From a virus, in the IMG/VR virus record IMGVR_UViG_3300047325_000150: a stretch of DNA of 64,000 bases; one strand, given 5' to 3'. Numbering within the stretch: position 1 is the first letter of the stretch; each line of letters begins with the position of its first letter. Under the pieces are notes generated by a model, which was not told where the DNA came from, made no database searches, and saw nothing but the letters and a program-made list of their open reading frames with translations. The position numbers and the translations under genes were made by a program. Positions 31,022-54,507 of this stretch are shown here, in pieces.

Positions 31022-31465
31022 ATGTCTCTAATAAATGAATTGCGTGAAAAGTCCATTACTGCTCGTAAAGGCTCTGATACTGTAGCCAAAAATTTATTGG
31101 TTACATTGTATGCCGAGTGCGTTCGAGTTGGCAAAGACAAACGCAATGGCGAGACGACCGACGACGAATGTCTTAGCGTCATCAAAAAATTTCTTGAAAA
31201 TGCTAAAGCAACAGCAGAGCTTCTTGAATACAAGGTTCCGGCGGCGTCAAGCTTTATCCACGAAGTTTCAATCCTTAGCGATTTGCTACCAAAGCAACTT
31301 ACAATCGACGAATTGGAACAGGCTATTAGTCAGATAATTGCTGATAAAGCATTATCAGATCTTAAAGGTCTTGGGCAAGTTATGGCTTCACTTAAGGCTA
31401 CATATGGCAGCACGTATGATGGTAAAGCTGCGAGCGAAATCACAAAAAGGTTATTGTCTCAATAG
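31022..31465 (+). CDS. YqeY/GatB-like domain protein
   Basis: Size and pattern match (LREKSITARKGSD..., LSVIKKFLENAKA, LPKQLTIDELEQAISQIIAD, LGQVMASLKATYGSTYDGKAASEITKRLL). Lies directly upstream of AspRS. Confidence 0.55.
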   Translation: MSLINELREKSITARKGSDTVAKNLLVTLYAECVRVGKDKRNGETTDDECLSVIKKFLENAKATAELLEYKVPAASSFIHEVSILSDLLPKQLTIDELEQAISQIIADKALSDLKGLGQVMASLKATYGSTYDGKAASEITKRLLSQ

Positions 31466-31971
31466 TGGATTTCTAACATGTCAGATGCTAACACAGATTG
31501 GCCAGAGGACGGAGAAAATCCGCATACTTTTCATGATTTATCGTATGATAACGGAAAAGTTAAAAAGATGTGGTATTGGACTGGTGCAGGTTGGTGTACA
31601 AAACCGAATAGTTTATATATTATCAAAACACCACAAATGAAGGCAATTGGCTGGATTTATCTTAGAATGATTGAGAAAATATAATGGCAAAAAAGACAAA
31701 AATTAAGAAAGACGCATACGGACTTTATGTTAAAGGCGGAGGCTATCTATGGCGTCCAATTCATCCAGAATACACCGTTGATACTCTATTCACCGACGGT
31801 ATGGAGGTTTCTGTAAACCATACTATGGCTGGTCCGGTGGCTAATATTAACTGTAATGGTATTAAAGAATCTTGGTATAGTCACGGCGCATATATTGAAT
31901 TTAGCAATGGTAAATCTGTTACTATTCAGACTGAAAAACTATTTAAACCTTCTTATGAAAACTGGTATTAA

Positions 31972-33786
31972 ATGTTTCGTACCCATAACTGTGGTGAGCT
32001 AAACCTTACTCACATAAACAAAGATGTGACAATTTCTGGATGGTTGCATTCGGTTCGAAACCACGGCGGCCTTATGTTTTTCGATATTCGAGATCATTAC
32101 GGAATTACGCAATGTGTTTTCAATGCTGAAATTAATGCAGAACTGTATGCCGCTGCCAAACCAACACGAATAGAAAGTGTGGTAAAGATTACCGGCAAGA
32201 CGGTGCGTCGTGTTGAAGGCACACATAACGACAAACTGTTGACTGGTGAAGTCGAAATCGTAGTTGATAAATTTGAAGTTTTGTCAGCAGCTGAAGTTCT
32301 TCCTATGCAAGTAAACAGCTTGGAAAACTATTCAGATGAGATGCGTTTAAAAAATCGCTTTCTTGATCTCCGTCGTGAGAAATTGCACAAGAACATTGTT
32401 CTTCGGTCGCAAGTCATTGAAACCATGCGAGAAAAAATGCGTTCGAAAGGTTTTGTAGAGTACCAAACTCCTATCCTGACTGCGTCATCTCCGGAAGGAG
32501 CTCGTGACTTTCTTGTTCCTGCTCGTAACCATCCGGGTAAATTTTATGCTCTACCACAAGCTCCTCAACAATTCAAGCAATTGCTAATGGTCGCCGGGTT
32601 TGACAAATACTTTCAGATTGCGCCGTGCTTCCGTGACGAAGCTGCGCGGTCAGATCGTTCACCGGGCGAATTCTATCAAATGGACTTTGAAATGAGCTTC
32701 GTTACGCAAGAGGATGTGTTCAATACACTTGAACCAGTCCTTTATGAAGTATTCACTCAATGCCAAATTGGCGCCCCAAAAAAATCCATAACTCATCTAC
32801 CTTTTCCGCGTATTACTTACGCAGATGCAATGCTGCATTATGGTTGTGATAAACCTGACCTTCGTAACCCATTGAAAATTTGGGATGTAACAGAACGCTT
32901 TAAAGATTCTGGGTTTGTGGTATTCGAGGAAATTATTGCAGGCGGCGGCGTAATTCGCGCAATACCATGTAAAGGATTAGGGGGCTATTCAAACGCCTTC
33001 TTCAAAAAATTAAATGATTGGGCCTTAAGTGAAGGAATGAATGGGCTCGGATATGTAAAATATATTCAAAGTGTTTGCAACGATGATAATCCGCCTTGCC
33101 AGATGAATTTCGTTGGACCAATTGCTAAAAATATATCACATGAGCGCAATCTGTTAATTATGCAAGATTATGGTTTGGAATCAAATGACGGTGTTTTCTT
33201 TATTGCTGGCAAATTAAATGAAGCAAACAAATTTGCTTCATTGGTTCGTACCAAACTTGGCGAAGAACTTGGATTGATTAATAAAGACTCATTTGAGTTC
33301 TGTTGGGTTGTTGATTTTCCAATGTTTGAAATTGATGAAGAAAGCGGCAAACTTGGTTTTGCTCACAATCCATTTTCGATGCCGCAGGGTGAAATGACTG
33401 CACTTGAAACGCAAGACCCTCTTACGATCAAAGCCTTTCAATACGATATCGTCTGCAACGGCATTGAACTATCATCAGGTGCAATCCGTAACCATAAGCC
33501 AGAAATTATGTTGAAGGCTTTTGAAATTGCCGGATATTCTGCAGAAGAGGTTGAGTCTCGATTTAGTGGCATGCTATCAGCTTTCCGCTATGGTGCACCT
33601 CCGCACGGCGGTGCGGCGCCGGGCGTTGACCGTATTGTTATGATGCTTGCAGATGAACCAAACATTCGAGAAGTAATAGCCTTTCCTCTCAACCAACAAG
33701 GTGAAGATTTAATGATGGGTGCTCCGTCAATTGTTCCCCCAGAAAGGTTGAAAGAATTATCACTTGATGTGAAAATAAAGAAATAA
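31972..33786 (+). CDS. aspS: aspartyl-tRNA synthetase, bacterial type (class IIb with GAD insertion)
   Basis: N-terminal OB fold ([28 protein letters not shown]). Motif 2 [28 protein letters not shown]. Motif 3 [19 protein letters not shown]. Length 604 aa. Confidence 0.9.
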
Positions 33787-33790
33787 AATT

Positions 33791-34618
33791 ATGTTCATAA
33801 TAGACCAACTGCATAATGAAAATCTTATTTCTCCTCCAAAGTGGTTGGCCAAAAATACTGTATATCTTACAATAACCGGATCACATTCCTACGGAGTTTC
33901 GACTGATAAAAGTGATTTAGATTTTTATGGTATCTGTGTACCACCAAAAGAAATTATATTTCCGCACTTAAATGGTATTGTACCGGGTTTTGGTACACAA
34001 GGAGAAAAATTTGAAAGTTGGTGCGAACAACATATTAAGCATGAGAATTTAGAATATGATTTCACAGTATTCAACATAGTAAAAGCCTTTCAATTAATAA
34101 TGGACGGTAATCCAAATCAGATTGAACAATTATTCTCTTCAGATGGAGATGTAATTCGATCAACTCCTGTGGGAAATCTTATTAGAGAAAATCGAAAACT
34201 TTTTTTAAGTAAAAATTGTTTCTATAAATTTATTGGCTTTGCAAGCGGACAAATAAAACGCCTTAGATCTGGATCTAAAAGTGTTAATCCAAAAATAATT
34301 GATCTAATTAATAGATTTGGATACAATATTAAAGAGGCCTATCACATTCCTAGATTACTTAATCAAGTTGAACAGATACTACTTGATGGCGATTTAGATC
34401 TTTGTAAAAATAACGAAATGCTTATTTCTGTTCGTAACGGAGAATGGACGTTAGATCAAATCGAAAAATATTATAACCATAAAGTTAACGTCTTACAATC
34501 ACTATTATCTGATGCAGTTGTTCCAGATAAACCAAATGAGAAATCACTCAGAGAATTGCTGATCAATTGTTTAGAACTTCATTATGGTAACTTAGGTTTG
34601 TTTAAAACGGTTAAGTAA
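33791..34618 (+). CDS. Pol-beta superfamily nucleotidyltransferase
   Basis: Classic hG[GS]x(9-13)DhD signature GSHSYGVSTDKSDLDFYG. Confidence 0.5.
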   Translation: MFIIDQLHNENLISPPKWLAKNTVYLTITGSHSYGVSTDKSDLDFYGICVPPKEIIFPHLNGIVPGFGTQGEKFESWCEQHIKHENLEYDFTVFNIVKAFQLIMDGNPNQIEQLFSSDGDVIRSTPVGNLIRENRKLFLSKNCFYKFIGFASGQIKRLRSGSKSVNPKIIDLINRFGYNIKEAYHIPRLLNQVEQILLDGDLDLCKNNEMLISVRNGEWTLDQIEKYYNHKVNVLQSLLSDAVVPDKPNEKSLRELLINCLELHYGNLGLFKTVK

Positions 34619-34902
34619 AATGTCAGAAAAGAAATATTGAAAAATACCAATGTATTCATACAATATTATGATGAATACATTATTAGAATCTGCATTAGAA
34701 AAAATAGTAGTAATTACATACCTAAAGAAGGACGGTACAACTCGTTTACTTCGTTGCACTAGAAACAATTCCTTCTTTAATTATGAATTCAAAAAAACTT
34801 CAAACTCTCAACCAAAATCAACTCATATAAATGTTTGGGATTTAGAGAAGTCTGCTTGGAGAACACTTGCTTATGAAAACATCAAAGCGTGGAATGAAGA
34901 AA

Positions 34903-35529
34903 TTAAATAAATTCTTTCTTTAGTAACTCAACAGTTGAGTTACTAACTACTACTTCAAAATGACTAAGGTTTAATTCTAGCAAGTTCATATCTTGCCTAT
35001 GTTTTTGACTTGCAACAGTTACAACACCGTCATTTGGCTCATGCATCCAGGTATTATGCCCTTTAACTGTTACAACATTTGTCCAAGGACAATGTATTGC
35101 AATTCTATTGGCCGACATAATGGGAGGCGATGTAGGAGTTATATCTCTTAGAACTTGTTTGAAAGGTAAGAATAATTTAAGCATGGATGCATGACTGCTT
35201 CCTCCGTACGGAGTACTTAATGTAATTCCTTGAATAGTTCTTTTTGGAAATATATCCATCAAATGAATGGCATATATGCCACCCAGACTATGTGCTATAA
35301 AACGCAGTTTTCCTGTTGTTTTTTCTAATTTATCTTTCATATCTTGAAGATTATTAAAAAATCCATTATCACTATTATAGTCAATTAATATATCATTTCC
35401 TCCAATCATATGTCGAATGTAAGTAAATGATTCAGATGTTGCATTGTTGCCGTGAATATAAACAATAGTCATAGAGTAGTGTCCTAATTGACTACTCTTA
35501 TTTACTCCTTTAGGTAATCTTTGAGCCAA
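34903..35529 (-). CDS. alpha/beta hydrolase (lipase/esterase-like)
   Basis: GxSxG nucleophile elbow IAHSLGG. N-terminal VYIHGNN strand. Confidence 0.6.
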   Translation of the reverse strand: MAQRLPKGVNKSSQLGHYSMTIVYIHGNNATSESFTYIRHMIGGNDILIDYNSDNGFFNNLQDMKDKLEKTTGKLRFIAHSLGGIYAIHLMDIFPKRTIQGITLSTPYGGSSHASMLKLFLPFKQVLRDITPTSPPIMSANRIAIHCPWTNVVTVKGHNTWMHEPNDGVVTVASQKHRQDMNLLELNLSHFEVVVSNSTVELLKKEFI

Positions 35530-35621
35530 TCGAATATGGCACTATTATTGTATCGTCCATTGCATTATTATTAAAAGCTAGCAATTGTTGATTTAAGTCA
35601 ACCGTAATATCGTAATTTTGG

Positions 35622-35649
35622 TTGACACAACAGCTATCTATGCTAGTAT
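35622..35649 (+). promoter_or_regulatory. sigma-70-type promoter (TTGGTTGACA-16-TAGTAT)
   Basis: -35 at 35622-35627 and -10 at 35644-35649. Precedes the gene at 35695. Confidence 0.5.
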
Positions 35650-35694
35650 GAAATTATAAATTTTTTGTAAAATTCAATTTTGGACGAGTGAATA

Positions 35695-36093
35695 ATGAAC
35701 CAGCGGGATATTACCCAATTTAAACAATTTGTTAATTTTAACGAAATTCTGTCATCTATTCAACCCGGTCAAATTTATTGGGTAGCTTCATCTATTTTCA
35801 ATCTGCCTGCAGACTTATCCGGACCATTTACGATGTACTCGTCCGGTTACGATAATGGTTCGTACTATATTTCATGCAGCGAAGATAATAATGTATTTTC
35901 AAGACATTATATTACGGATATTTGCAGGAATAATTTTGACGCAATTTTTACTTCTCAAGATATGGCTATTGAATTTGTAAATATTTCAAAACGTATTTAC
36001 GAATCTAGTACTGAGTGGCAAGAACTTGCAAGGGCAGAACAAGATGCATTTTGCGCAAATTTAGATTCTGATTGGACAGAGCTTGATGATTAA
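35695..36093 (+). CDS. hypothetical protein
   Basis: ORF downstream of a promoter. Confidence 0.4.
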   Translation: MNQRDITQFKQFVNFNEILSSIQPGQIYWVASSIFNLPADLSGPFTMYSSGYDNGSYYISCSEDNNVFSRHYITDICRNNFDAIFTSQDMAIEFVNISKRIYESSTEWQELARAEQDAFCANLDSDWTELDD

Positions 36094-36418
36094 ACATATT
36101 AAACATATCAAAATATTTAATAATTGGGTTACCAATAAATTTATAGTCGAAGATACTAATCAGCCAGATCGAATTACTGTTAAAGAACTTATACAAATTT
36201 TTAACGGGAAACTACCTGAACAAGCATTTGAATTTTTAATTTCGCCTACAGACGGTAAAACCGTTACAGAAATAAGAAACATTTTGTGCTCAATTGCCAA
36301 TGGCACATATATTGCACCGATTCGCCCAGAAGCTATAATACTTCAATTTACAGAACTACCTGTGCAAGTTGTTTCCCAAGAAAATGTTAAAAAGAAAAGA
36401 GTTCGAAAAAAAGCGTAA
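36083..36418 (+). CDS. hypothetical protein
   Basis: Overlapping start with the upstream ORF. Confidence 0.35.
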   Translation: MMIKHIKHIKIFNNWVTNKFIVEDTNQPDRITVKELIQIFNGKLPEQAFEFLISPTDGKTVTEIRNILCSIANGTYIAPIRPEAIILQFTELPVQVVSQENVKKKRVRKKA

Positions 36419-36454
36419 GTTGTAAATTAGATTTGTTGATTATATATTTAAACT

Positions 36455-37090
36455 ATGCAAATAAATTTTAAAGAACTTAGAGCAAGCGAAATTGCTGCAT
36501 CAAATGATGTAAAAAACGTCCATAACGAATTACAGCATTTATCTGTTCCGGAATTACAAAATATTAGTCTGGCAGACCGTATGCCATGGCATGTATGTTG
36601 TTTAAATCTGTCGGGCGATTTAAACGTTGGTACAGTAATTCGTTCAGCGCACCTTTTGGGTGCTAAAAGCGTAATTATATTTGGACGAACTCGGATTGAT
36701 AATCGCAGTCTGGTTGGGGCCGCAAATTATATTACGGTACATCGAATCGCAGGATTGGATGAGAACCTATCGTATGATGTAGATATTTTCAAAAAAACTA
36801 TACAAGATTATAATCTTGTTCCCATCATATGTGAGTCGGGCGGAGAGAATTTATTCGAATTACCCTGGAAAAATCGAATAAATTCAATACTTAATTCTGA
36901 GAAAGAACCTTGCTTAGTACTTGGTAACGAGTCTAATGGAATACCTTTCGATATTATAGAATATGTAAAAAATGTAGAGAACAGTTTTACGGTTACTATA
37001 CCAATGAAGGGTGTGATTCGTAGTTTTAACGTCGCCTCGGCCTTCTCTATAATTGCAAGTCAATTACTTAGCAAAATGTGCTGGTTCTAA
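36455..37090 (+). CDS. SpoU/TrmH-family (SPOUT) RNA 2'-O-methyltransferase
   Basis: NVGTVIRSAHLLGAKSVIIFG, LVLGNESNGIP and IPMKGVIRSFNVASAFSII motifs. Confidence 0.8.
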   Translation: MQINFKELRASEIAASNDVKNVHNELQHLSVPELQNISLADRMPWHVCCLNLSGDLNVGTVIRSAHLLGAKSVIIFGRTRIDNRSLVGAANYITVHRIAGLDENLSYDVDIFKKTIQDYNLVPIICESGGENLFELPWKNRINSILNSEKEPCLVLGNESNGIPFDIIEYVKNVENSFTVTIPMKGVIRSFNVASAFSIIASQLLSKMCWF

Positions 37091-37293
37091 TGGATATAAT
37101 ATCTGCCATAGATGTAAGACATAGCGATACAAAAATAGATTACATACTCAATTCCCTAGAGAATGAATATCCCGGCTGTATAAAATGGTTCCATGATCAT
37201 GTAGGTGATGTGATATTCGATCTCGTCCTTGATGAGGATCATAATTGTACTGTGAATATCGTTATGACCCCAGAGCGAAAGATCGAATTTAAT

Positions 37294-37716
37294 TTAAAGT
37301 TCGGTTAAAGTTGTCGTGTCATAATGTATTATTGTGAATTGTACATGTAAGATGGCCGCTGCAACATCAAGATTAAACCATTCTCCGTGCGATCGCAAAT
37401 GACTAATATCTTTATGCAGTAGTCCTTCAAATTTTCTTGCTTTCTTTCGTTCATCTAATACTTCAAGATATTTGATTTCCAATTTTTCCGGAAAACCTGT
37501 TTGTAATGATTTAAGTCTATTTTCTGGATTATCAGAAATTCCTATCTTAACTGGACCAAGATTATGTTTAGCAGATGAAATAATATAGATGTTTGACATA
37601 AAATATTTATTGCCAAAATCATTATTGTTTATAAATTTGATATAGATTATATTTACAATGTGCGAGGAGAAATAGCACGAATGGCTGTCGACAGCTCGAA
37701 GGACAATAAGGGACAA
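37294..37716 (-). CDS. T5orf172 (GIY-YIG-like) domain protein
   Basis: VKIGISDNPENRLKSLQTGFPEKLEI ... GEWFNL pattern of the T5orf172/MUG113 domain. Confidence 0.55.
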   Translation of the reverse strand: MSLIVLRAVDSHSCYFSSHIVNIIYIKFINNNDFGNKYFMSNIYIISSAKHNLGPVKIGISDNPENRLKSLQTGFPEKLEIKYLEVLDERKKARKFEGLLHKDISHLRSHGEWFNLDVAAAILHVQFTIIHYDTTTLTEL

Positions 37717-38148
37717 TATGTATCACCTTATGACGCAACCGAAAGAAATTTAATTTCGAAAAATGAAGAACCATCCGGACACGGACTGCGGTTCAGACAC
37801 AATTAGCATGTCGGTGATTGCTAATTGTTGTTACAGTTGTTGGGTAGGACCCAGATCAACGCACATATTTCTTATATGGCATCATGTAATAATGATTTTC
37901 TTATATAAGATATCTGGAATCGGACAACCGCCAGAGAACACATGAACAATATGATTACCGAGCTATACGGCCCATAAAAATATGATCTCCCTGTAACGGG
38001 GATCATATGGCTACCACACCATACCAAAAAGAAAAAGAATTCATACGTTCATTAAAGATTAAATAATTAATGAACGTATGAGTTTGAGATTTATCGAAAA
38101 ACGAATAGTGAATTAGGTGTTTACACCTTTCATCATTAAGTCACATTT

Positions 38149-38364
38149 TCAAACAATTCGTAATTTGTTTAGTTCTTCTAAAGTTAGAGGTTCATGTGCC
38201 CAATCTTGGGTGTAATTACAATTATCACATATCCACCCATTTGTAGTTGCAATTAAATCACTTCTACAATGATCATTGCCGCAAGTATATGGATGAAAAA
38301 CACCTGCTACTTGATATGCGTTAAGTCTAACAATAATGTCATCAGACCAAGGAGCTTTAATCAT
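38149..38364 (-). CDS. small zinc-ribbon protein
   Basis: CGNDHC ... CDNC Cys pairs. Confidence 0.4.
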   Translation of the reverse strand: MIKAPWSDDIIVRLNAYQVAGVFHPYTCGNDHCRSDLIATTNGWICDNCNYTQDWAHEPLTLEELNKLRIV

Positions 38365-38567
38365 TAATCAAACACCCGACCATCATTACATAGAATTGCA
38401 ACACCTTTCCCACTAGACTCGGTTGCAATTTGTTTTACAACGCATCCAGATGGTAGATTGACTTCTGCCCAATCCCCAATACTATGGTTAATATAACCTC
38501 CCATACCGTATTTTCCACAACTAGATAGTAGAAGCAAGCTTGTAAACAAAACGATTTTAAATTTCAT
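38364..38567 (-). CDS. small lipoprotein
   Basis: Signal peptide with lipobox LLSSCG. Confidence 0.4.
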   Translation of the reverse strand: MKFKIVLFTSLLLLSSCGKYGMGGYINHSIGDWAEVNLPSGCVVKQIATESSGKGVAILCNDGRVFD

Positions 38568-38633
38568 TTAAATCTCCAATTTGAAATTACTAGCAATTAA
38601 ATAGATATTTGGCCAAGTTATTTTTTGGTAAAT

Positions 38634-39913: not shown

Positions 39914-40873
39914 TTATGCCATCTCTACTTCGCGTTCCATAACGTCTTCATCACTGTCTTCTTCATCTTCGTTGAACGTAACCAGGTAGTCTAATGCCTG
40001 CGAAGCTTTAGATGCTGCTGACATAATAGCACGACTATCACGTTTCATAACAGTTAGCCAATGTGAAATATAGGGTGCATGGTCCTCACGAATCTCGGGG
40101 ATCAACCCAACCTCGGCCATTAAAAATGCTGCGCCAAGTTCAGCAACAAGCTCTTCCATTGCATATGCTTCGGAACCCCAACGGTCCTGATTAAAATTTC
40201 GATTTAAGCGGGACTCATGACCAGTCCAATGAATGGTTTCATGACCGCGAGTAGAAAGGTATTTTTGCTCAGTAACAAATGAATCACGCTCAGGCAAATG
40301 CACGCAATCATTCTTAGTTGAGTAATATGCTTTGTTGCCGCCATGCTTAACAGACGCTGGAATAGCTTCAAACCATGCAAAACAGTTATTATATGCTGTC
40401 CAATTTTTTGTAACTTCGGATATAATAGTTACTTTTGGCAGTGCAAATTTCTCAGGAAGGCCGTCAATTTGTTCAACATTGAACACATTATAGGTTTTCA
40501 AAAAACTGAACTTGTGTTCGACATCTTGGCCGTTTGCATCTTGTTCGGTTTTTTTGACTAAATTAGTGTAAACGATCTGCGTAGCCTTCTCACCTTTGCG
40601 AACATTTGCACCGTACGAAGTAGCCTGCTTATAAGTCATCCAAAATGGTGACTCATATCCGCAAGCCTTAGCTTTTGACCAAAGAATAAGCACGTTGATA
40701 CCTTTATAGCGTGCTCCGTTGTGGCGCCGTGGGACAGACAGCCCGCTTTTACCAAGCCACGGTTTCGTCCATGGCAATACGCCATTTTCGAGTTCAGCAA
40801 TGATAGAATTTGTAATTTGCTCACAAACGTCACTTGTTTTCATTATCAAAATCCTATTTTTTGATAGTTGCAA
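39914..40873 (-). CDS. ArdC-like antirestriction protein (N-terminal ssDNA-binding domain plus zincin-like metallopeptidase)
   Basis: DUF1738-like N-terminus (ELENGVLPWTKPW, GINVLILW). HExxH-type HETIHWTGHE in the C-terminal half. Confidence 0.65.
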   Translation of the reverse strand: MQLSKNRILIMKTSDVCEQITNSIIAELENGVLPWTKPWLGKSGLSVPRRHNGARYKGINVLILWSKAKACGYESPFWMTYKQATSYGANVRKGEKATQIVYTNLVKKTEQDANGQDVEHKFSFLKTYNVFNVEQIDGLPEKFALPKVTIISEVTKNWTAYNNCFAWFEAIPASVKHGGNKAYYSTKNDCVHLPERDSFVTEQKYLSTRGHETIHWTGHESRLNRNFNQDRWGSEAYAMEELVAELGAAFLMAEVGLIPEIREDHAPYISHWLTVMKRDSRAIMSAASKASQALDYLVTFNEDEEDSDEDVMEREVEMA

Positions 40874-41405: not shown

Positions 41406-42095
41406 TTGGAGCAAAAGTTCATGGTTAGTTTTGCGAATGTAAAAACTGTTTCTAAACCATCTCCCAAAGGTAAGGCAACAAAAGCGTCTATTAAAATTGA
41501 CGGATTGCTACAGTTTGCAGCGCTCAACAATGCAATGGGTACCATCGAGACGTTGAAAAAGACGTACGAAGATGAAGTAAAAACACAAATGCTGGCCCAG
41601 TTTATTACCGCTGGTTCAGCAAGTGGATTGAAGCCAGAAAGCTTTGAAGGCACCGAAGATCAAGCAACTGCTAGCTGCGAAATTCGCAAGCGTAGCATCC
41701 GTAGTGTGCTTTCCTCCACTGATAGAGCAATTCTTGCAGATCATAAGATTCCCGTTGAGGAAACAACGTCGGAAACCGAAACGTTGATTTTTAATCCTGC
41801 ATACCTCAATGATGCTAAGCTGATGGCAAAAATTGAAGCAGCATTGAATAAGATTCCTGGGTTGCCAGATGATATCATTATGAAGCAGGAAGGTGTTACC
41901 ACCTTTACCGTTTCTGATGCTACTGTAAACGCAGTATTTGCCACGAAAGATAAAGCAAAACTAGAATTGCTGATTCCTATCGTTACAACGTTGGCAGTGA
42001 AGCCGAAGTTGGATGATGACACTGTAGTTGCCGACACGATTCGTACTCTTCTCCTCGGGGAAACAAAGAAAACCGCTAAAAAGGCTGCTAAGTAG
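41406..42095 (+). CDS. hypothetical protein (GC-elevated block)
   Basis: ORF with an RBS GGAG. Lys-rich C-terminus. Confidence 0.4.
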   Translation: MEQKFMVSFANVKTVSKPSPKGKATKASIKIDGLLQFAALNNAMGTIETLKKTYEDEVKTQMLAQFITAGSASGLKPESFEGTEDQATASCEIRKRSIRSVLSSTDRAILADHKIPVEETTSETETLIFNPAYLNDAKLMAKIEAALNKIPGLPDDIIMKQEGVTTFTVSDATVNAVFATKDKAKLELLIPIVTTLAVKPKLDDDTVVADTIRTLLLGETKKTAKKAAK

Positions 42096-42713: not shown

Positions 42714-43343
42714 GTGAAATATACAGAATATGGGTTTTTATATCCACCGCGTCCAGAAAACGCGATTATGAAAATGGCCCTATCTGCTTATGATGCTCGA
42801 AAATGGCACGCGCAAATTAAAAAAAATGGGACAAATAATGTAATTGCAGTAAGTCCGGAGAAAGAATTAATTTGCATGACTCGTCATGGTGTACCACATA
42901 AACAATGGGCACCTACAACCGAATCAGCTGAACCATTTAAAGCTTTACCCGGAAAAGGCTGGTATGTTTTTGTTGCAGAACTTATGAACAACAAAACACC
43001 TGACATCAAAGACATTAATTATGTAAATGATGTATTAGTTGCTGATGGTGAGTACCTTGTCGGGGTCACATTTAGTGAACGTCAGTTACTGATTGAGTCG
43101 CTTTTTAACGTACACGCAGGCGAAAGTGCAGAATCTCATTGGATTGCTCATCCAAATCTTTGGGTTGCAAAAAGCTTTAAAGGCGTAAATTTTCGCACTC
43201 TTTTTGAAGAATTGCATAAACCTGAGGACGAAGGTTTAGTCATTAAAAATCCAAATGCGAAACTACTATTATGTAATACCCAATCTGCTAATTCAGGTTG
43301 GATGGTTAAAATTCGTAAAAAGACTAAGAATTATGGGTTTTAA
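42714..43343 (+). CDS. minimal Rnl2-like RNA ligase (nucleotidyltransferase domain only)
   Basis: Motif I KKNGTN (compare KxHGxN of Rnl2). Motif IV EGLVIKN. Motif V LLLCNTQ ... KIRKK. Confidence 0.5.
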   Translation: MKYTEYGFLYPPRPENAIMKMALSAYDARKWHAQIKKNGTNNVIAVSPEKELICMTRHGVPHKQWAPTTESAEPFKALPGKGWYVFVAELMNNKTPDIKDINYVNDVLVADGEYLVGVTFSERQLLIESLFNVHAGESAESHWIAHPNLWVAKSFKGVNFRTLFEELHKPEDEGLVIKNPNAKLLLCNTQSANSGWMVKIRKKTKNYGF

Positions 43344-46913: not shown

Positions 46914-46922
46914 GATACACAA

Positions 46923-47342
46923 ATGAAAATAAAAATAAATGGTACCGAAATTGAGCTAACAGGTGGGAGTGCATCGTTTGACGTAAAAAACGGTACATTA
47001 TCATTCTCTCCTAATCACAAAGATCAACACAAAGATCAACACAAATCAGATAAATTATTTTTAATTGAAGGTCCGGAAACTAAGGCGTTGCCGGCCCCAA
47101 AACGTAAAACGGATACAGCCATAACCAAAACATCGATTAAAAACAAATTATTAAAGATGTTTGAAGAAAGTCAGGATGGTATTGTAACCAGTCAATCAAT
47201 AACTTATACTGTATTAGGAAAATTTGCAAGTTCGGACGATAAGACATTCCTTAAAAGAGTAATATCAGATTTAGTTAGCGAAGGTGTTTTGGTAACTGAA
47301 AAAAAGAACGAACGGTCAATATTCAAACTAGCTAATGTGTAA
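46923..47342 (+). CDS. hypothetical protein with HKDQHKDQHK repeat
   Basis: ORF only. Confidence 0.4.
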   Translation: MKIKINGTEIELTGGSASFDVKNGTLSFSPNHKDQHKDQHKSDKLFLIEGPETKALPAPKRKTDTAITKTSIKNKLLKMFEESQDGIVTSQSITYTVLGKFASSDDKTFLKRVISDLVSEGVLVTEKKNERSIFKLANV

Positions 47343-47367
47343 TTTTAGCTCACTACCAAAATCTTAG

Positions 47368-47781
47368 TTGACAACAATATTACGAAGTTTAAGTTCAAAA
47401 CTACGCTCAAACATTAAAATTAAAGGAGTACAATATATGTCGGCCGAAACATTTACTATAGTCGGAGTATCAACTTACGGAAATATTACTAAATTTCGTG
47501 TAGGTAATGGTGTCGCCGCTGAACGTGCTAAGGTATTGGTACGCAATGGCCATACTAAAATCAACTTGGTGGATTTGGAAAATCCCATGACGAAACTCCA
47601 GGCTATTGATTGGTATAAAGAACAACACCCAGAATTTAAGACCTTGACAATCCCAAACCAGGCAAAAATTCTTAAGGCAGCAAAAGCAGCACACCCAGTT
47701 AACGAAACAGAAATTGAAGCAACCGAAGACGCCGAAGCTGAAGATATTTCTGCTAAAATTACGGAAGATACCGCCGCATAA
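47368..47781 (+). CDS. hypothetical protein
   Basis: ORF only. Confidence 0.35.
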   Translation: MTTILRSLSSKLRSNIKIKGVQYMSAETFTIVGVSTYGNITKFRVGNGVAAERAKVLVRNGHTKINLVDLENPMTKLQAIDWYKEQHPEFKTLTIPNQAKILKAAKAAHPVNETEIEATEDAEAEDISAKITEDTAA

Positions 47782-47792
47782 TTGTCTCTTGT

Positions 47793-48020
47793 ATGACACC
47801 CAAACAGAAACTGGTATTGGAAATCGTGTGCGATAGTCCTCATGGCCACTCCATGGTCGAGGATATCGCATTCGAGGCCCAAACAACTCCGCAGGCAGTC
47901 GGAAAGATTGTGGCAGCACTATCTTCGGCAGGCCTTGTTTCCAGACAACGGTTTGCTGCGGGGAAATGGGAAATCTGGCCTACTGACGAAGGGCGCAAAG
48001 AAGCCGCTAACGTCACTTAG
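47793..48020 (+). CDS. small winged-helix DNA-binding protein (MarR/PadR-like)
   Basis: LSSAGLVSRQRFAAGKWEIWPTDEGR wing-like segment. Confidence 0.35.
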   Translation: MTPKQKLVLEIVCDSPHGHSMVEDIAFEAQTTPQAVGKIVAALSSAGLVSRQRFAAGKWEIWPTDEGRKEAANVT

Positions 48021-48241
48021 TTTTCTTCGTAGACATGTTCTGTTGCTTGGGGTTTAAACACCCCATTATGTCTGACGGTTATTGGACATTCAAAAAGCTA
48101 AAAATTTAAAATCAATAATTGACAATAATACTTTTCTAGAACAAAAGTAAATATAAAGATTTATCAAGAAGCATACGATCTAATATGACATTAGACGAGA
48201 AAAACGATATAATAATGAATTCATACAAAAGGTAAAAAAGA

Positions 48242-48712
48242 ATGGAAGAATATTTCACATCGACTAAATCATATTATAATTATCCGTGCGCCCATCGACA
48301 GTATAGACATGATGGAAACTGTGCCAAAATTCATGGATATAGCAGATCATTTCATTTTGTATTTGGTGTAAAAACTTTTACAAAAGAAGGTTTTGCAGTT
48401 GATTATGGCGACTTAGATGAACTTAAACAACATTTGGATTATATGTATGATCATACTTTGGTTCTTGATGAGAACGACCCTCATATGGAAACATTTAGAA
48501 ATCTAGAAAAGGCAGGCGCATGTGATATACGTGTCCAACCATTGGGACCGGGTATGGAGGGAACAGCTCATTATTTGTGCGAATGGGCTGATAATTATCT
48601 ACGAAAAAAATCAAAGGGTAGAGCTTGGGTTATTAGTGTAGAAGCTAGAGAAAATGACAAAAATAGTTCTATATATATAAATCCTAATGCGGGTTTTCAA
48701 GGTTGGTTATGA
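48242..48712 (+). CDS. 6-pyruvoyl-tetrahydropterin synthase / QueD-like protein
   Basis: CAKIHGYS (degenerate CxxHGH zinc site). Acidic EN/DH motifs. Typical 150-aa PTPS size. Confidence 0.5.
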   Translation: MEEYFTSTKSYYNYPCAHRQYRHDGNCAKIHGYSRSFHFVFGVKTFTKEGFAVDYGDLDELKQHLDYMYDHTLVLDENDPHMETFRNLEKAGACDIRVQPLGPGMEGTAHYLCEWADNYLRKKSKGRAWVISVEARENDKNSSIYINPNAGFQGWL

Positions 48713-49157
48713 GTTTTGCATGAACCATAGATTCAAAAAGTTTTATATGGGAATAGCATACGAGACAGCTAAACTTAGCTATGCAGAAAAGATGAAAGTT
48801 GGGTGCGTTGCAGTAAAAGACGATAATATACTAGCTTTTGGGTATAATGGTACACCGCCGGGTTGGGATAATCAGTGCGAAGATATTATAGTTAATCCGG
48901 ATGGTCTATCTGAATTAAAAACTAAGCAGGAAGTTATTCACGCTGAAATGAATTGTTTAATGAAATTATCAAAAAACAATGAGTCTAGTGCAGATGCAAC
49001 AATATTTCTTACTCATTCTCCGTGCTTTGAATGTTCGAAAGGTATATTCTTAGCAGGTATAAAAGAAGTCTACTATTCGGAAGAATATAGAAAAACCGAT
49101 GGAATTGATTTCCTGAAAAAATGTAACATTAAGGTTGAAAAATTTGACTCACTCTAA
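48687..49157 (+). CDS. dCMP deaminase (CDA-fold zinc deaminase)
   Basis: HAEMNCL and SPCFECSK zinc-binding motifs. Confidence 0.8.
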   Translation: MRVFKVGYEFCMNHRFKKFYMGIAYETAKLSYAEKMKVGCVAVKDDNILAFGYNGTPPGWDNQCEDIIVNPDGLSELKTKQEVIHAEMNCLMKLSKNNESSADATIFLTHSPCFECSKGIFLAGIKEVYYSEEYRKTDGIDFLKKCNIKVEKFDSL

Positions 49158-49374
49158 ATTAGTGTTTTGTGTAAAATGGTCAGCAAGTATCTTGCTGATC
49201 ATTGGTTCTATTCTTACTTGTTATAAAATATATCCATATAATATATGGGCATTTGGTTTGGGTAGCTTTTTTTGGGTAGTAGTTGGTTTGTTATGGAAAG
49301 AATATAGCATTGTTATTTTAAATGCTATATCCGTTGGAATATACGTGTTTGGTATAATACATGGTATTAGATAA
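49135..49374 (+). CDS. small membrane protein
   Basis: Three hydrophobic helices. Confidence 0.35.
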   Translation: MKNLTHSKLVFCVKWSASILLIIGSILTCYKIYPYNIWAFGLGSFFWVVVGLLWKEYSIVILNAISVGIYVFGIIHGIR

Positions 49375-49677
49375 AAAAGTATTTGAAAATGCTGGGTTAA
49401 GTTATGAAATTTGGGATTTTTGTTTTGGTAAGGAAATTGCCAAAACAATTATGTCTAATAAATTTTACCTTCAATCATATAATAATAATTGGGAAATTAC
49501 CCTCTGTCAAGAATATGCAGTATTTAATGCATTGATAAATAGGGAAATTTTATTGCAATCTTATTCAAATAAAGAGGAAGCAGAGAATATCTATCTGCAA
49601 TTGGTATTAAGTTCGTCCAATTAAAGTTAATGGATTAATGGTTGATAGACGTTGGTTTTGATGCTAAAATTATTTAG

Positions 49678-50853
49678 ATGAACATACCTGATATTATTTC
49701 GGATGATCTAAAAAATCTTCGATTAATTTTCAATAAAAACGGATTTGATATTCGTTTGGTTGGGGGTGTAGTTCGAGATATGATTGCAGGCGGCAACCCA
49801 ACTGACATTGATCTTTGCACGGATGCTAATCCTTATCAGCAAATTGCTTTGTATGATGCTAATAACGTGCAATATATTGCAACCGGATTAAGTCACGGCA
49901 CCATTACCGTAGTATTAAATCATGTAGCATATGAGATCACTAGTTTAAGGACTGACTCTGATCAAGATGGTCGGCATGCTACGGTCAGTTATACAAAGGA
50001 TTGGCTTGGAGATCTTAGTCGTCGAGATTTTTGTTTTAACGCAATGTCAATGACGTTTGATGGTCAGCTGATTGATCCATTTAATGGCAAACACGATCTT
50101 GAAAATGGTATTGTGAGATTTGTCGGAAATCCGGATGACCGGATAAAAGAAGATTATCTACGAATTATGCGTTGGTTTAGGTTTCTAGGTAGATACGGCG
50201 ACATTGCTCATCCAAATAATTATGATACCATTGCTGCAATCGCCAGAAATGCTAAAGGTTTAAATATCATCAGTGCTGAAAGAATTTGGAAAGAATTTAA
50301 GCAAATTCTTGCACACAATTCGGTCAATGACATATTGCCCTTGTTCAGACCTGCAATGGTAATTGGTCCAATTTTTCAACAATTGCCATATACCAGACGA
50401 GCTTATGCGACTGAATATGTAAACAATGTTATCGCCAGAACTACAAATCCGATTACTCGGTTAATTGCTTTTTATTCAATCCATCGTAACATGGTACGTG
50501 AATACTCTAAAAGATTTAAATGGAGTAAAGATGAAACAAAACTGGCAGAGTTTTTAGCTAACAATCACAGTGCTAATTGGGATCATGGTAGAATGATGGC
50601 TGTTGAAGGATATCCTCGTGAGTTTGTAAAAGAGCTAGCTGTACTTGATAATCGCGATGTATTTCATACTGAGGTATGCAATACATGGGAGGTTCCTGTA
50701 TGTCCAGTAAATGGGGTTGACATTATGGATAAGTTTAATATTTTAGGTCAAGAAGTAGGCATTAAATTAGCGGAAGCTAAGAATTTTTGGGCAGATAATA
50801 ATTATAATGTCAATAAGGAAGAAATTTTTAAATTCTTACAAACAAAAGTTTGA
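49678..50853 (+). CDS. cca: CCA-adding tRNA nucleotidyltransferase (class II NTase / poly(A) polymerase family)
   Basis: Head-domain motif LVGGVVRDMIAGGNPTDIDLCT. RRDF..NAM motif. Typical 391-aa length. Confidence 0.85.
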   Translation: MNIPDIISDDLKNLRLIFNKNGFDIRLVGGVVRDMIAGGNPTDIDLCTDANPYQQIALYDANNVQYIATGLSHGTITVVLNHVAYEITSLRTDSDQDGRHATVSYTKDWLGDLSRRDFCFNAMSMTFDGQLIDPFNGKHDLENGIVRFVGNPDDRIKEDYLRIMRWFRFLGRYGDIAHPNNYDTIAAIARNAKGLNIISAERIWKEFKQILAHNSVNDILPLFRPAMVIGPIFQQLPYTRRAYATEYVNNVIARTTNPITRLIAFYSIHRNMVREYSKRFKWSKDETKLAEFLANNHSANWDHGRMMAVEGYPREFVKELAVLDNRDVFHTEVCNTWEVPVCPVNGVDIMDKFNILGQEVGIKLAEAKNFWADNNYNVNKEEIFKFLQTKV

Positions 50854-50910
50854 TAGATTTTTTTAACAACGTAATTATAGTAAAATCATTACTAACAAAA
50901 AGGTACATTT

Positions 50911-52815
50911 ATGCATTATGTTTTTTTAGGTTCGATTTTTTTGATCGGACTTGTAGTTCTAGCAGTTTTCGCCTGGCTAATTAAAAGTAGCTGCGTTTAC
51001 ATTGGCAATGGTACATATGGCGTAGTCGAAAAACTTTGGGCATTTTCTTCAAAGAAAAGAACTAGCTTTTTGGCGTTAAAAGGTGAGCCGGGCTATCAAC
51101 CAGAATTGCTGTACGGCGGATTTCATTTCTTCTTTCCTTTTCAATATCGCGTCCTTAAGCAACCTATGATTACTAATAAAGGTATCGCCTACTTATTTGC
51201 GCGTGATGGTAAACAGCTAACCGAAGGACAAGCGCTAGCACAATGGCCAGAAGGCGTTGCTGTTGAAGATGCAAGAGCATTTTTAGAGAGTGGCGGACAG
51301 TCTGGGCCGCAGCGTTTTATTTTACGTCAGGGTTTGCATGCCGTTAATACTGCATTGTTTGCAGTATTTACTGAAGAAGGCATATTTACAATTGATGTTG
51401 GCGAAAATGCTATCCTTGGAAAAATTAATGATTACCTTAAGTCTGTTGACGGATATAACCCAATTACCTTGTCATCAGATGGTGTTGGCGTGGTAACGGT
51501 TAACGATGGCGATTCACTTGAACACGGTGAAATTGTTGCTCCTACTGTTAAAACAACTGATCATAATTCTTTTCAATCAATTGAAAAGTTTTTGAGCGGT
51601 GGCGGCAAGCGAGGCCGACAAGAACAGGTATTGGTGGAAGGCGTTTATTATATCAATCGACTGTTTGCTACGGTTGAGATGTTTAAGAAGGTCGTTATCC
51701 CTGTTGGTAACGTCGGAGTTATCAACTCCTATGCCGGACCATCAGGTGTTGATATTTCTGGGCAAGATTACACGCATGGGCAACTTGTTAGGCGCGGCGA
51801 AAAAGGCATTTGGAGTGAGGCTCTTCCGCCTGGCAAATACGCAATCAACCCTTATGCGATGAGCGTTGCTACAATCCCGACAACAAATTTGGTTCTTCGT
51901 TGGGAAAAAGGTTCAGCAGAAGGACACGGATTTGATAGAAATCTAAGCGAAATTAAGTTGATTACTAAAGATGCATTTGAGCCAATTGTCGGACTGTCTT
52001 TAGTTATTCATATTGGTAAAGATGATGCTCCATATGTTATACAGCAATTTGCTGATATTCAGATGTTGGTTGATCAAACACTTGATACAATTGTGTCGTC
52101 TTGGTTTAAGGATGCTGTGCAAGATCTAACTTTGATAGAGTTCATTAATACAAGAGCTGAACTTCAATTACGAGCTAAGGAAGCAATCGCAAAACGATTC
52201 CTTGCCTATAAATTGAGCGTTCAGGAAATCATGCTCGGTACACCTCGTTCAGACAAAGGAGATGATGCAATTGAAGTTGTATTCACTCAGCTACGCGAAC
52301 GGCAATTGTCGGTAGAACAAACTGCTACCTTCAAAGCGCGTCAGCTTACAGTTCAAACCGAAAAAGAATTTAACGAAGCACAAGCAATTGCAAGTAATCA
52401 AACAGCTCTTACAACTTCTAAGATTGCTATTGAGATTGCGGAAAATAACGGTTCTGCAGAATTAGCTAAGCGAACCAAAGAAGCACAAGGTAAGGTTGTT
52501 ACAGCAGAAGCTGATGCTAAGCAAACAACATTGCTAGGTAATGCAGAGGCTGAGAAAATTAAAGCAATTGGTCAAGCTAATGCTGATGCAGCACAAGCTC
52601 AAGTTGAAGCATATGGCGGAGCAGAATTTGCATTACGTAAGTCTATAACTGAAATTATTGCCCAGGCCTATTCTAATAGCGGACAGCCAAATGTGCCACA
52701 AGTTATGATGGGCGGTGCAAATGGTAGCGATGCAGCAAGTGGCTTAGCTAATTTGTTGGCTACTGCTGCATTAGCTGGCGGCAAAATTGATGGTTTGCTA
52801 CCAGAACCCAATTAA
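50911..52815 (+). CDS. SPFH/band-7 (flotillin-like) membrane protein
   Basis: N-terminal TM. Central SPFH-like region. C-terminal Ala/Glu/Lys/Gln-rich flotillin-like repeats (AEAEKIKAIGQANADAAQAQVEA). Confidence 0.55.
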   Translation: MHYVFLGSIFLIGLVVLAVFAWLIKSSCVYIGNGTYGVVEKLWAFSSKKRTSFLALKGEPGYQPELLYGGFHFFFPFQYRVLKQPMITNKGIAYLFARDGKQLTEGQALAQWPEGVAVEDARAFLESGGQSGPQRFILRQGLHAVNTALFAVFTEEGIFTIDVGENAILGKINDYLKSVDGYNPITLSSDGVGVVTVNDGDSLEHGEIVAPTVKTTDHNSFQSIEKFLSGGGKRGRQEQVLVEGVYYINRLFATVEMFKKVVIPVGNVGVINSYAGPSGVDISGQDYTHGQLVRRGEKGIWSEALPPGKYAINPYAMSVATIPTTNLVLRWEKGSAEGHGFDRNLSEIKLITKDAFEPIVGLSLVIHIGKDDAPYVIQQFADIQMLVDQTLDTIVSSWFKDAVQDLTLIEFINTRAELQLRAKEAIAKRFLAYKLSVQEIMLGTPRSDKGDDAIEVVFTQLRERQLSVEQTATFKARQLTVQTEKEFNEAQAIASNQTALTTSKIAIEIAENNGSAELAKRTKEAQGKVVTAEADAKQTTLLGNAEAEKIKAIGQANADAAQAQVEAYGGAEFALRKSITEIIAQAYSNSGQPNVPQVMMGGANGSDAASGLANLLATAALAGGKIDGLLPEPN

Positions 52816-52822
52816 ATAGCTT

Positions 52823-52858
52823 TAGAATTAGAGGAACCGTAAGGTTCCTCTAATTCTA
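52823..52858 (+). terminator. long perfect hairpin after the flotillin-like gene
   Basis: TAGAATTAGAGGAACC-gtaa-GGTTCCTCTAATTCTA, 16-bp stem. Confidence 0.5.
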
Positions 52859-53646
52859 TGTAGACATTTTGGTAAAACTGCTATACGTTTATTAACGAAA
52901 GTGGGATCAAATGCGCGAATTATATTTTGTTCGAGGTACACTTGTTACAAAATCGTATAACTATGCCAATTACATATTTTCGGAATACGGTGATACTGTA
53001 TGGATACTTGATGACGGACGAAATGTAACAACCAGAAATTTAAAAGAGGACGATGTTCTTGTGATGAAGTTTACGCATAAATTTAAAATTCATCACATCG
53101 AAATAGACGGATTCATAATATAAACGAAAGGCTGTTTATCCGCAAAGAGTACAATCAAACTCTTTTGAAAAGACTAACTGATATGAAGACTAAAATGGCA
53201 GCAACGTTATGGTGGGGAAATAATGAATCTAGATCAGGATGGTGGTTAACATTACCAAATAATTCGCTGGTAGTAGTGTATGGCCCTTCTATGTGTGAAA
53301 CAAGCGGCGGCGGTCCTAAAGCAGCATTAAAAGAAGCTAAACATATATGGGGCGGTAATATTGTTGTATTGCCGGCCCCTAATCATACTAAAGTAGGTAC
53401 CAATGAAATATGCAATTGTAATAAAAGGTGATTTATGAAGGTAAGTCAATATAAGCAATGGCAGGAAAAAACAATTAAATTAAATAAAGACAAAATTATT
53501 AAGCTAGGCGATATTGTATCAGATGGAATATCAGGCGACACTACCGGAACGGTAGTAGATATACAACTTCCGGTAGATCCTATTATTGAAGGTTCTATAG
53601 AAGTTTTATTGAGCAACGGCGAGATAGAACATTATGCTTGGTTTAA

Positions 53647-54507
53647 TTGGAAAGATGTTTTACGTATATTAGATTAGGTACTCAAATGAACAATGATGAA
53701 TTTGGTAAACGTATGAAAAGATTTGAATCATACGAAACACAACGCACATTCCTGCCAGGACTTCCGATTTATGCAAGATTAGACGGGCGCGGATTCTCTG
53801 TATTCACTAAAGGTATGGAAAAACCGTATGATGAAAGACTGTCTAAATTAATGAGTGCGACAACAAAGCATCTTGTTGAAAAAACTCATGCCAAATTTGG
53901 GTATTCCCAAAGCGATGAAATCTCTCTCATATTTAATAATGACGATATTCTCGGAGATATATTCTTTGCTAGAAAAATATTCAAGCTTACTAGTGTGTTA
54001 GCGAGCATGGCGACTGCTTATTTCATGTTAAATATACGCAATTACTTTGACGAAGAAAGTGCAAACTATGAGTCAAGGTTACCGCATTTCGATGCAAGGG
54101 TAATTCAATTTCCATCTAAAATCGAAGCATCAAATATGGTACTTTGGCGTACAATAGATGCTAATAGAAATGCAATAAGTATGGCGGCTCAATCAAAATT
54201 TTCACATAAAAGCTTAAAGGGTGTGTCTAGTTTGCAAATGAAAGAAAAATTACTTAAATTTGCGGGAATTAACTTTGATGAATACCCTATGCATTTTAAG
54301 CAAGGCGTTTTCTTTCATCGAGTCCTAAAAGAAAAAACACTATCACCCGAAGTGTTGGCGTTAATTCCTGAACATGAACGAGCTGAGGCTGCGTTGAAAA
54401 CTTATACTAGATCAAAAGTTGAAGAAATTCAAATGCCAATGTTTCATACTGTGTCAAATAAAGATGGTGTAATATTTAATGCCGAACCCCCTACACTTTT
54501 TAATTGA
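53647..54507 (+). CDS. Thg1-like protein (tRNA-His guanylyltransferase / 3'-5' RNA polymerase family)
   Basis: Signature ARLDGRGFSVFTKG and YSQSDEISLIF motifs. Likely real start at the internal Met (MNNDEFGKRMKRF, 53689). Confidence 0.8.
   Translation: MERCFTYIRLGTQMNNDEFGKRMKRFESYETQRTFLPGLPIYARLDGRGFSVFTKGMEKPYDERLSKLMSATTKHLVEKTHAKFGYSQSDEISLIFNNDDILGDIFFARKIFKLTSVLASMATAYFMLNIRNYFDEESANYESRLPHFDARVIQFPSKIEASNMVLWRTIDANRNAISMAAQSKFSHKSLKGVSSLQMKEKLLKFAGINFDEYPMHFKQGVFFHRVLKEKTLSPEVLALIPEHERAEAALKTYTRSKVEEIQMPMFHTVSNKDGVIFNAEPPTLFN

Follow-up and report, generated by a model that had tools for sequence, protein, structure and literature searches.

Between 31 and 54.5 kb of a 64,000-nucleotide stretch of viral DNA (IMG/VR record IMGVR_UViG_3300047325_000150; the whole stretch is referred to below as the window) lie genes for an aspartyl-tRNA synthetase (AspRS) with YqeY- and RlaP-family companions, a SpoU-family methyltransferase, a QueD-like protein, a CCA-adding enzyme and a Thg1-like protein (TLP), and an array of 17 tRNA genes follows. 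In our view it is fairly likely that this region and the tRNA array make up the section of a large T4-like phage's accessory genome that supports translation. An earlier sequence-only reading had described six open reading frames (ORFs) of the region as a tRNA maturation and repair toolkit; all six were found where it had placed them, and the RlaP and QueD-like genes are two further related genes that it had left out. Domain calls were judged by Pfam gathering scores and NCBIfam equivalog cutoffs, complemented by PHROG, PDB, Rfam and ARAGORN, and the frequency of each gene in phages was taken as the number of matching records (tblastn) among 50,697 phage records. The YqeY, AspRS, CCA and Thg1-like assignments all exceeded the Pfam gathering scores, and the catalytic motifs of AspRS, the CCA enzyme and the TLP are intact. 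Seven of the 43 ORFs at 31.0-54.5 kb are tRNA-related, compared with none of the 48 ORFs upstream (post-hoc Fisher test, p = 0.004).

The tRNA genes, which likely provide the main substrates, were identified by 17 ARAGORN calls and the Rfam tRNA family (56714..63360, + strand); all are on the same strand, 2 kb downstream of the TLP gene. CCA is encoded in 14 of the 17 genes and missing from those for tRNA-Ala, tRNA-Pro and tRNA-Asn, and these three tRNAs give the class-II CCA-adding tRNA nucleotidyltransferase (49678..50853, +) an obvious maturation role. This enzyme combines a PolyA_pol head domain (98.6 bits, cutoff 23) with an RNA-binding domain, matches phrog_2244 (4e-57) and has motifs A (GGVVRD..DID), B (RRD) and D (EDYLR) intact in the alignment with TRNT1. 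Human mitochondrial TRNT1 is matched along the entire length at 2e-67 (solved bacterial CCA enzymes, 1e-38) and poly(A) polymerase at 1e-18, so that CCA addition is favored over poly(A) polymerase activity. As a divergent member it falls short of the NCBIfam equivalog cutoff (best PRK13299, 175 versus 290). Homologs occur in 404 phage records, the closest being 38% identical.

The TLP is of the bacterial type and a predicted 3'-5' nucleotidyltransferase (53686..54507, +). It scored 118.4 bits with Pfam Thg1 (PF04446, cutoff 29.2) and 3e-74 with phrog_4717, while the Thg1 C-terminal domain (PF14413) was matched weakly (18.3 bits versus a cutoff of 26.3). Translation probably begins at the ATG at 53686 and not, as taken before, at the TTG at 53647, since the ATG agrees with where the upstream ORF ends and with the alignment to 4KGK. 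This structure, deposited as 'Thg1-like uncharacterized protein' and presumably the TLP of B. thuringiensis, is the best PDB match (2e-34, residues 4-217); its RIDGAHF and QSDEIS segments align with RLDGRGF and SQSDEIS of the phage protein, in which the catalytic Asp and the Ser-Asp-Glu are kept and which is longer by ~50 C-terminal residues. By likeness to 4KGK, the activity to be expected of the phage TLP is templated 3'-5' addition repairing 5'-truncated tRNA. Bacterial TLPs mend 5'-truncated tRNAs in just this way, which we count in favor of the translation-support reading. TLP homologs were found in 163 phage records, with 48% identity to the CcrColossus TLP, and a scan of IMG/VR returned no close relatives. 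A role of the TLP in systematic 5' editing of phage tRNAs was considered and rejected, as the array contains no overlapping tRNA genes and a 1:72 mismatch in one tRNA only. The latter is tRNA-Met(CAU) (61950-62025, +), whose U1:U72 mismatch is like the 1:72 mismatch of the bacterial initiator tRNA and makes it the only candidate for 5'-end editing in the array.

Upstream, five genes on one strand form the tightly spaced, operon-like block YqeY-orf-orf-AspRS-RlaP. The first gene of this packed co-directional block encodes a YqeY-family protein with a GatB-tail-like tRNA-binding domain (31022..31465, +; PF09424, 58.4 bits, cutoff 27, profile positions 3-143 of 143), which also matches phrog_1460 (1e-28) and the YqeY structures 8XJE (9e-8) and 1NG6 in the PDB. 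It had been described as directly preceding AspRS, but two small ORFs of 68 and 95 aa in the ORF list (31478-31684 and 31684-31971, +) intervene; the second, which has no Pfam match, stops one base ahead of the AspRS start codon. The synthetase itself (31972..33786, +) is of the bacterial type with a GAD insertion. It scored 781 bits with the NCBIfam aspartate--tRNA ligase model NF001750 (cutoff 443) and above cutoff with the Pfam families tRNA-synt_2 (PF00152, 368.9), OB anticodon domain (PF01336, 62.5) and GAD (PF02938, 33.4), and class-II motifs 1-3 are intact in the alignment. After a gap of 4 nt follows the RlaP-family, i.e. RNA-repair-associated Pol-beta-type, nucleotidyltransferase (33791..34618, +; PF10127, 70.2 bits, cutoff 23; phrog_388, 2e-48) with the Pol-beta motif G-S-x10-D-L-D (TGSHSYGVSTDKSDLDF). 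RlaP is 43-45% identical to proteins of giant Caulobacter/Brevundimonas phages and occurs in 599 phage records.

The phage AspRS is probably of the non-discriminating (ND, Asp/Asn) type, since it carries the His31/Gly83 signature (P. aeruginosa numbering). The call was made by alignment to structures labeled by their depositors: both residues are as in the Asp/Asn-labeled 4WJ3 (P. aeruginosa) and 4RMF (which we take to be the M. tuberculosis enzyme), whereas E. coli AspRS has Leu and Lys. The corresponding anticodon-binding segments read RNHGG/VEGT in the phage, DHGG/PEGA in 4WJ3, DHGG/PEGN in 4RMF and DLGS/DEKN in E. coli. Among the top 120 relatives of the phage enzyme, His31 is kept in 120 and Gly83 in 119. 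Bernard et al. are said to have implicated the two residues in tRNA-Asn recognition in 2006, and the functional meaning of the signature rests on that report. The architecture, an OB domain, a catalytic core and a GAD domain, is identical to that of the ND bacterial enzymes; in contrast to these, the present AspRS is phage-encoded and there is no GatCAB in the window, so that amidation would depend on the host. The enzymes closest to it (68-70% identity) come from phage-like contigs with genes for a tyrosyl-tRNA synthetase (TyrRS) and a class-I aminoacyl-tRNA synthetase (aaRS) as well, and the next tier (~65%) is alphaproteobacterial (Acidocella, Rhodopila, Rhodospirillales); close relatives were not found in the IMG/VR scan. 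AspRS homologs occur in 44 phage records, of which at least some are doubtful. 'Microcystis phage MaAM05' (MW495066.1, 1-17749) was rejected as a phage precedent because its aspS lies among gatA, rnhC, coaE, a sensor kinase gene, hppA and pgcA, surroundings that look like a bacterial chromosome. The count is inflated, since many of the other AspRS matches are to short contigs of the collection that carry no annotation.

YqeY homologs occur in 92 phage records, 12 of them from Caulobacter phages. In Vibrio phage Pontus the gene lies within a tRNA array with no aaRS nearby, and in pf16 it adjoins tRNA genes (PMC5587285). Since YqeY recurs with phage tRNA arrays even where an aaRS is missing, it is not specific evidence for the role in Asp/Asn metabolism at which it had been taken to hint; the His31/Gly83 signature of the AspRS is independent of it.

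The methyltransferase gene (36455..37090, +) had been assigned to SpoU/TrmH. The first half of this name stands: the predicted SpoU/SPOUT-family RNA 2'-O-methyltransferase scored 63 bits with Pfam SpoU_methylase (cutoff 29.7) and contains the three SPOUT motifs NVGTVIRSA, LVLGNESNGI and IPMKGVIRSFNVASA. TrmH in particular was not supported, the protein being below every specific NCBIfam equivalog (TrmH NF008295, 22 versus 227 bits; RlmB, 36.7 versus 160; TrmL, 24 versus 191), and no PHROG match was obtained. SpoU is rare in phages, with 4 records in the collection. The QueD-like 6-carboxytetrahydropterin synthase (48242..48712, +; Pfam PTPS, 64.9 bits) belongs to the 7-deazaguanine/queuosine precursor pathway; it matches phrog_2389 (5e-33) and scored 35 bits with TIGR03367 QueD, under the cutoff of that model. 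For the deaminase encoded at 48687-49157 TadA was considered and rejected, the protein being ComEB/dCMP-deaminase-like.

T4-type rIIA and rIIB genes (rIIA-type ORF 10022-12250, phrog_612, 4e-128; rIIB-type ORF 12301-13440, phrog_609, 2e-76) confirm the window as phage DNA. No phage structural family was matched by the window proteins scanned, no megablast match to the 50,697 phage records was obtained at the DNA level, and promoter and terminator scans of the window gave background level only. The window covers nearly all of a JGI metagenome contig of 64,809 bp, on which an identical ligase-like protein is encoded. It is probably a fragment of a large T4-like phage whose host is probably an alphaproteobacterium. 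The alphaproteobacterial affinity is drawn from the 65% identity of the AspRS to Acetobacteraceae and from the nearest TLP, RlaP and CCA homologs, which are found in Caulobacter/Brevundimonas phages; the TRNT1-like CCA enzyme together with the alphaproteobacterial-like AspRS hints at the same host group.

As to substrates, cooperation between the proteins and advantage for the phage, we infer the following. Separately acting enzymes would keep a usable tRNA pool during infection, comprising the phage's own tRNAs and probably those of the host too. The CCA enzyme would complete phage tRNA-Ala, tRNA-Pro and tRNA-Asn and rebuild trimmed 3' ends, the TLP would use template-dependent 3'-5' addition to restore 5' ends that are damaged or truncated, and the SpoU enzyme would 2'-O-methylate an RNA, most plausibly tRNA. 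AspRS would add aspartylation capacity for tRNA-Asp and probably also for tRNA-Asn, the product of which host GatCAB would go on to amidate, with YqeY as a putative tRNA-binding accessory factor and RlaP, presumably co-transcribed with AspRS, as an RNA-repair-associated nucleotidyltransferase. Less probably, the YqeY-AspRS(ND)-RlaP operon could serve the phage as a means of raising or redirecting the Asp/Asn-tRNA supply via host transamidation.

Several points weigh against this translation-support reading. Genes for tRNA-Asp and tRNA-His are not present in the window, and its tRNA-Asn(GUU) (60368-60440, +) is atypical: position 33 is A where U is usual, position 37 is G, the acceptor stem has an A1-U72 pair and three G-U pairs, the discriminator is A73 and CCA is not encoded. 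AspRS, AsnRS or GatCAB may accept this tRNA poorly. Hosts normally own both a CCA enzyme and an AspRS, so that the need for phage copies is one we can only infer. Next to AspRS in the two relatives closest to the phage enzyme, none of the called genes matches the YqeY or RlaP family of Pfam. The GC content of the window (~35%) is low beside that of the Acetobacteraceae, a high-GC family, and the contig of 64.8 kb is only a fragment. The tRNA-related genes are mixed with unrelated ones (ArdC, an SPFH protein, the dCMP deaminase and a T5orf172 protein). The same genes are scattered over the genomes of the giant Caulobacter phages, RlaP lying at ~52 kb and CCA and TLP at ~218-225 kb, and co-location is not conserved. 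Finally, YqeY in Deinococcus GlnRS enhanced tRNA binding only in cis (PMC1865053).

Some of the same evidence bears on a different explanation, namely that accessory genes were acquired independently into a hyperplastic, tRNA-rich region and that their proximity reflects tolerated insertion instead of cooperation. The interspersed unrelated genes would be expected under such a scenario, the homing-type HNH and resolvase genes in the tRNA array suggest mobility, the record counts differ widely (from 599 for RlaP through 404, 163, 92 and 44 for CCA, TLP, YqeY and AspRS to 4 for SpoU), and gene order differs among relatives. It accounts poorly, however, for the local concentration of tRNA-related ORFs, albeit a post-hoc result, for the operon-like spacing of YqeY-orf-orf-AspRS-RlaP and for the fact that several jumbo-phage lineages unrelated to each other combine TLP and CCA/RlaP with a large set of tRNAs (PMC3601020), and we regard the absence of any functional unit as improbable.

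An assignment that does not hold is that of a minimal Rnl2-like RNA ligase. The gene encodes a stand-alone covalent nucleotidyltransferase (ligase) domain of 209 aa with a DNA-ligase-like fold and without an OB domain (42714..43343, +). At E <= 0.01 the window protein has no match to RNA_ligase (PF09414), and its match to DNA_ligase_A_M (PF01068) is sub-threshold (24.7 versus 26.2 bits); across the family, 33 of 34 members match DNA_ligase_A_M and 8 of 34 match RNA_ligase at the same E-value. The motif I lysine does exist: K36 as well as R57, E89, D106, E173/K178 and K199/R201 (motifs Ia, III, IIIa, IV and V) are invariant in the 34 sequences, and by sequence the protein is a genuine member of the covalent nucleotidyltransferase superfamily. 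The AlphaFold model (pLDDT 95) is a single domain whose closest folds are the adenylation domains of DNA ligases; neither Rnl2 as the nearest structural neighbor nor an Rnl2 C-terminal domain was borne out for it. An OB-fold domain with motif VI is absent from the 209-aa model and no conserved small OB-type ORF lies nearby; a neighboring small ORF as supplier of the OB domain was rejected on the basis of an all-vs-all BLAST of five loci, in which only the ligase and a 229-aa protein are conserved. The latter (41406..42095, +) is linked to the ligase-like gene and conserved upstream of it in three of the four other loci, with differing intervening ORFs, and has no family or fold match. The ligase-like family comprises at least 580 metagenomic matches, is present in 5 of the 50,697 phage records, all of them genomes of 595-735 kb, and was not found in any of 185,579 cellular genomes. 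Its contexts are T4-like or huge-phage (terminase, gp23, gp32, RecA/UvsX-type protein). In five phage genomes the neighbors of the ligase-like gene are not RNA-repair genes, and in one of them the gene lies near gp32 and a RecA/UvsX-type protein.

The ligase-like gene and its 229-aa neighbor may form a DNA nick- or end-joining module for replication, recombination or repair that is unrelated to tRNA, a plausible explanation to which we give somewhat less than an even chance. The near-universal match to DNA_ligase_A_M in the family, the homolog near gp32 and the RecA/UvsX-type protein, and the existence of split (heterodimeric) phage DNA ligases in the PDB (9HU3) all point in this direction. 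Yet the OB domain and motif VI on which adenylylation by DNA ligases depends are absent from the protein, and the 229-aa partner has no recognizable DNA-binding fold. Furthermore, motif I reads KKNGTN (K-x-N-G-T-N), unlike the DNA-ligase form KxDGxR and similar to the KIHGTN of Rnl2; the highest identity in structural alignments was obtained with T4 Rnl2 (21%), and some family members match RNA_ligase as well. Because of the resemblance of motif I to that of Rnl2, an action on RNA is conceivable, in which case the protein might represent a novel type of RNA-repair ligase in phages. We consider it rather unlikely that the two proteins constitute an undescribed nucleic-acid joining or nucleotidylating system of uncultured large and huge phages. 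That the ligase-like gene belongs to the tRNA set is not demonstrable.

These properties of the ligase-like protein also bear on the proposal that the region is a counter-defense toolkit, in which the enzymes would reverse damage inflicted by host tRNA-targeting defenses, the ligase resealing anticodon-loop cuts and the CCA enzyme and TLP restoring the ends that toxins directed at the acceptor end have attacked. As a whole we consider this proposal unlikely. Its end-repair part is possible: the CCA and TLP families are confirmed, and the two enzymes could in principle restore the 3' and 5' termini of tRNA. The Pfam name of the RlaP family refers to RNA-repair pathways, and a gene for the anti-restriction protein ArdC with a metallopeptidase domain (39914-40873, -) lies in the same region. 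The ligase part is unsupported. The known phage answer to tRNA damage is T4 Pnkp plus Rnl1 acting against PrrC, and it is T4 Rnl2 of which motif I is reminiscent; the ligase-like protein, however, is structurally of the DNA-ligase type, not Rnl1 or Rnl2, and its neighbors in the five phage genomes argue in the same sense. An ATP-dependent ligase cannot seal 5'-OH and 2',3'-cyclic-phosphate ends unhealed, and no end-healing enzyme (Pnkp, RtcB, RtcA, Hen1 or 2',3'-cyclic phosphodiesterase) was found among the ~70 ORFs scanned in the window, itself only a fragment of the genome, so that the claimed sealing of anticodon-loop nicks is unsupported. All that was seen in this respect were a small, distant metallophosphoesterase (2346-2912, +) and a kinase-like AAA_28 P-loop protein (20096-20620, -). 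Maturation of split tRNA loci had been suggested as a further task, but ARAGORN in intron mode found no intron-containing tRNA genes that would need ligation. Split or intron-containing tRNAs were therefore rejected as ligase substrates, the sole permuted-looking element being a weak tRNA-like match.

Compared with sequenced phages, the closest TLP (42-48%), RlaP (43-45%) and CCA (38%) homologs are those of the giant Caulobacter/Brevundimonas phages (CcrColossus, CcrBL9, CcrSC, CcrPW; vB_BpoS), which infect alphaproteobacteria. CcrColossus encodes CCA (gp289) and TLP (gp300) on one strand with ~6 kb between them, an arrangement like the one found here. The giant phages appear in none of the 44 AspRS, 4 SpoU or 5 ligase-like records, and, unlike them, the present DNA has T4-type rIIA/rIIB and no DNA-level similarity to any sequenced phage. 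Among GAP32-like phages (Cronobacter GAP32, Yersinia fHe-Yen9-04, Erwinia pEa_SNUABM, Serratia BF) the TLP is ~45% identical to ours, and GAP32 has the TLP, a PF10127/RlaP nucleotidyltransferase, an RNA ligase and a dCMP deaminase within ~30 kb. Their ligase is a genuine PF09414 RNA ligase, whereas ours is DNA-ligase-like and OB-less, and no AspRS was seen near their TLP. Phage TLPs have been annotated since 2013, when gp143 of Bc431v3 was reported (PMC3601020), and a TLP occurs together with a nucleotidyltransferase in Bc431v3, which has 20 tRNAs, and in BM10 (PMC3601020, PMC6292376). A survey of huge phages (Al-Shayeb et al. 2020) reports up to 15 aaRSs, a CCA-adding enzyme, QueC/D/F, many tRNAs and an own sigma-70 (PMC7162821), and five of the genomes of that survey are the only phage records with ligase-like homologs. 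The statement that an aaRS is rare in a phage thus applies to cultured phages and not to huge phages, in which such enzymes are well documented (PMC7162821). The survey is an inventory and not enzyme-level; neither the YqeY-AspRS-RlaP arrangement nor the ND signature of the AspRS is described in the sections considered here.

The concept of such a gene set is consequently not new, like combinations being already known from jumbo and giant phages. Fresher are the probably ND AspRS of alphaproteobacterial type in a YqeY-AspRS-RlaP operon, the phage-rare SpoU gene and the orphan ligase-like family with its 229-aa protein. The region is a well-resolved example, with intact active sites, of large phages carrying tRNA maintenance genes beside tRNA genes, and it connects the gene repertoire known from the giant Caulobacter/Brevundimonas phages with a T4-like phage that has not been cultured. 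It also offers objects for testing: the TLP and the CCA enzyme with three CCA-less tRNAs as natural candidate substrates, the probably ND phage AspRS with YqeY and RlaP, and the orphan minimal ligase-like family. The value is incremental and current understanding is not overturned, unless the ligase-like module should prove to be a new RNA-repair system.

Several further elements were noted in the tRNA array. At 58461-58570 (+) the Rfam family YrlA (Y RNA-like, RF02553) is matched over its full length, but at 30.8 bits (E 4.5e-5, 261 nt searched) the match stays below the gathering score of 69. The T-arm, the central stem and a D-arm-like element are kept and the 5' and 3' ends pair, whereas the Ro-binding helix is not kept; a Ro/Rsr (TROVE) gene was not seen in the window. 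This element may be what had been read as a split tRNA locus. Two weak tRNA-like matches without an ARAGORN call (57997-58068 and 58581-58649, +; Rfam 30.5 and 25.2 bits, gathering score 29) may be tRNAs of a degenerate or atypical kind. Five tRNAs have leucine anticodons (UAA twice, UAG, CAA twice; 57310-57473, 58278-58444 and 63195-63271, +). They measure 74-78 nt up to the discriminator, have short or intermediate variable regions and all carry A73 and an encoded CCA; bacterial tRNA-Leu, in contrast, is typically a long-arm class-II tRNA. Embedded in the array are an HNH-endonuclease-like gene (59198-60001, -; phrog_23051/phrog_1271) and a gene with the N-terminal domain of a serine recombinase (Resolvase; 62210-62800, +), which resemble the homing endonucleases of T4/T5-type tRNA regions.

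Outside the array, a full-length RpoD-like sigma-70 (28459-29928, +; phrog_351, 3e-83) with regions 1.2, non-essential, 2, 3 and 4 is encoded directly upstream of the tRNA-related block, and an SPFH/Band 7 protein of 634 aa (50911-52815, +) between the CCA and TLP genes. Further upstream are genes for a non-specific DNA/RNA endonuclease (19288-20085, +), which one AspRS relative has too, and for a nucleoside 2-deoxyribosyltransferase-like protein (21738-22244, +). Six tandem co-oriented ORFs of 149-233 aa (15722-19175, -) overlap by 7 nt, with weak leucine-rich-repeat matches in two of them, and may be a paralogous array. Upstream of rIIA, in a stretch of small ORFs, the local GC content peaks at 0.43 (8001-10000) compared with 0.31-0.35 in the flanks.

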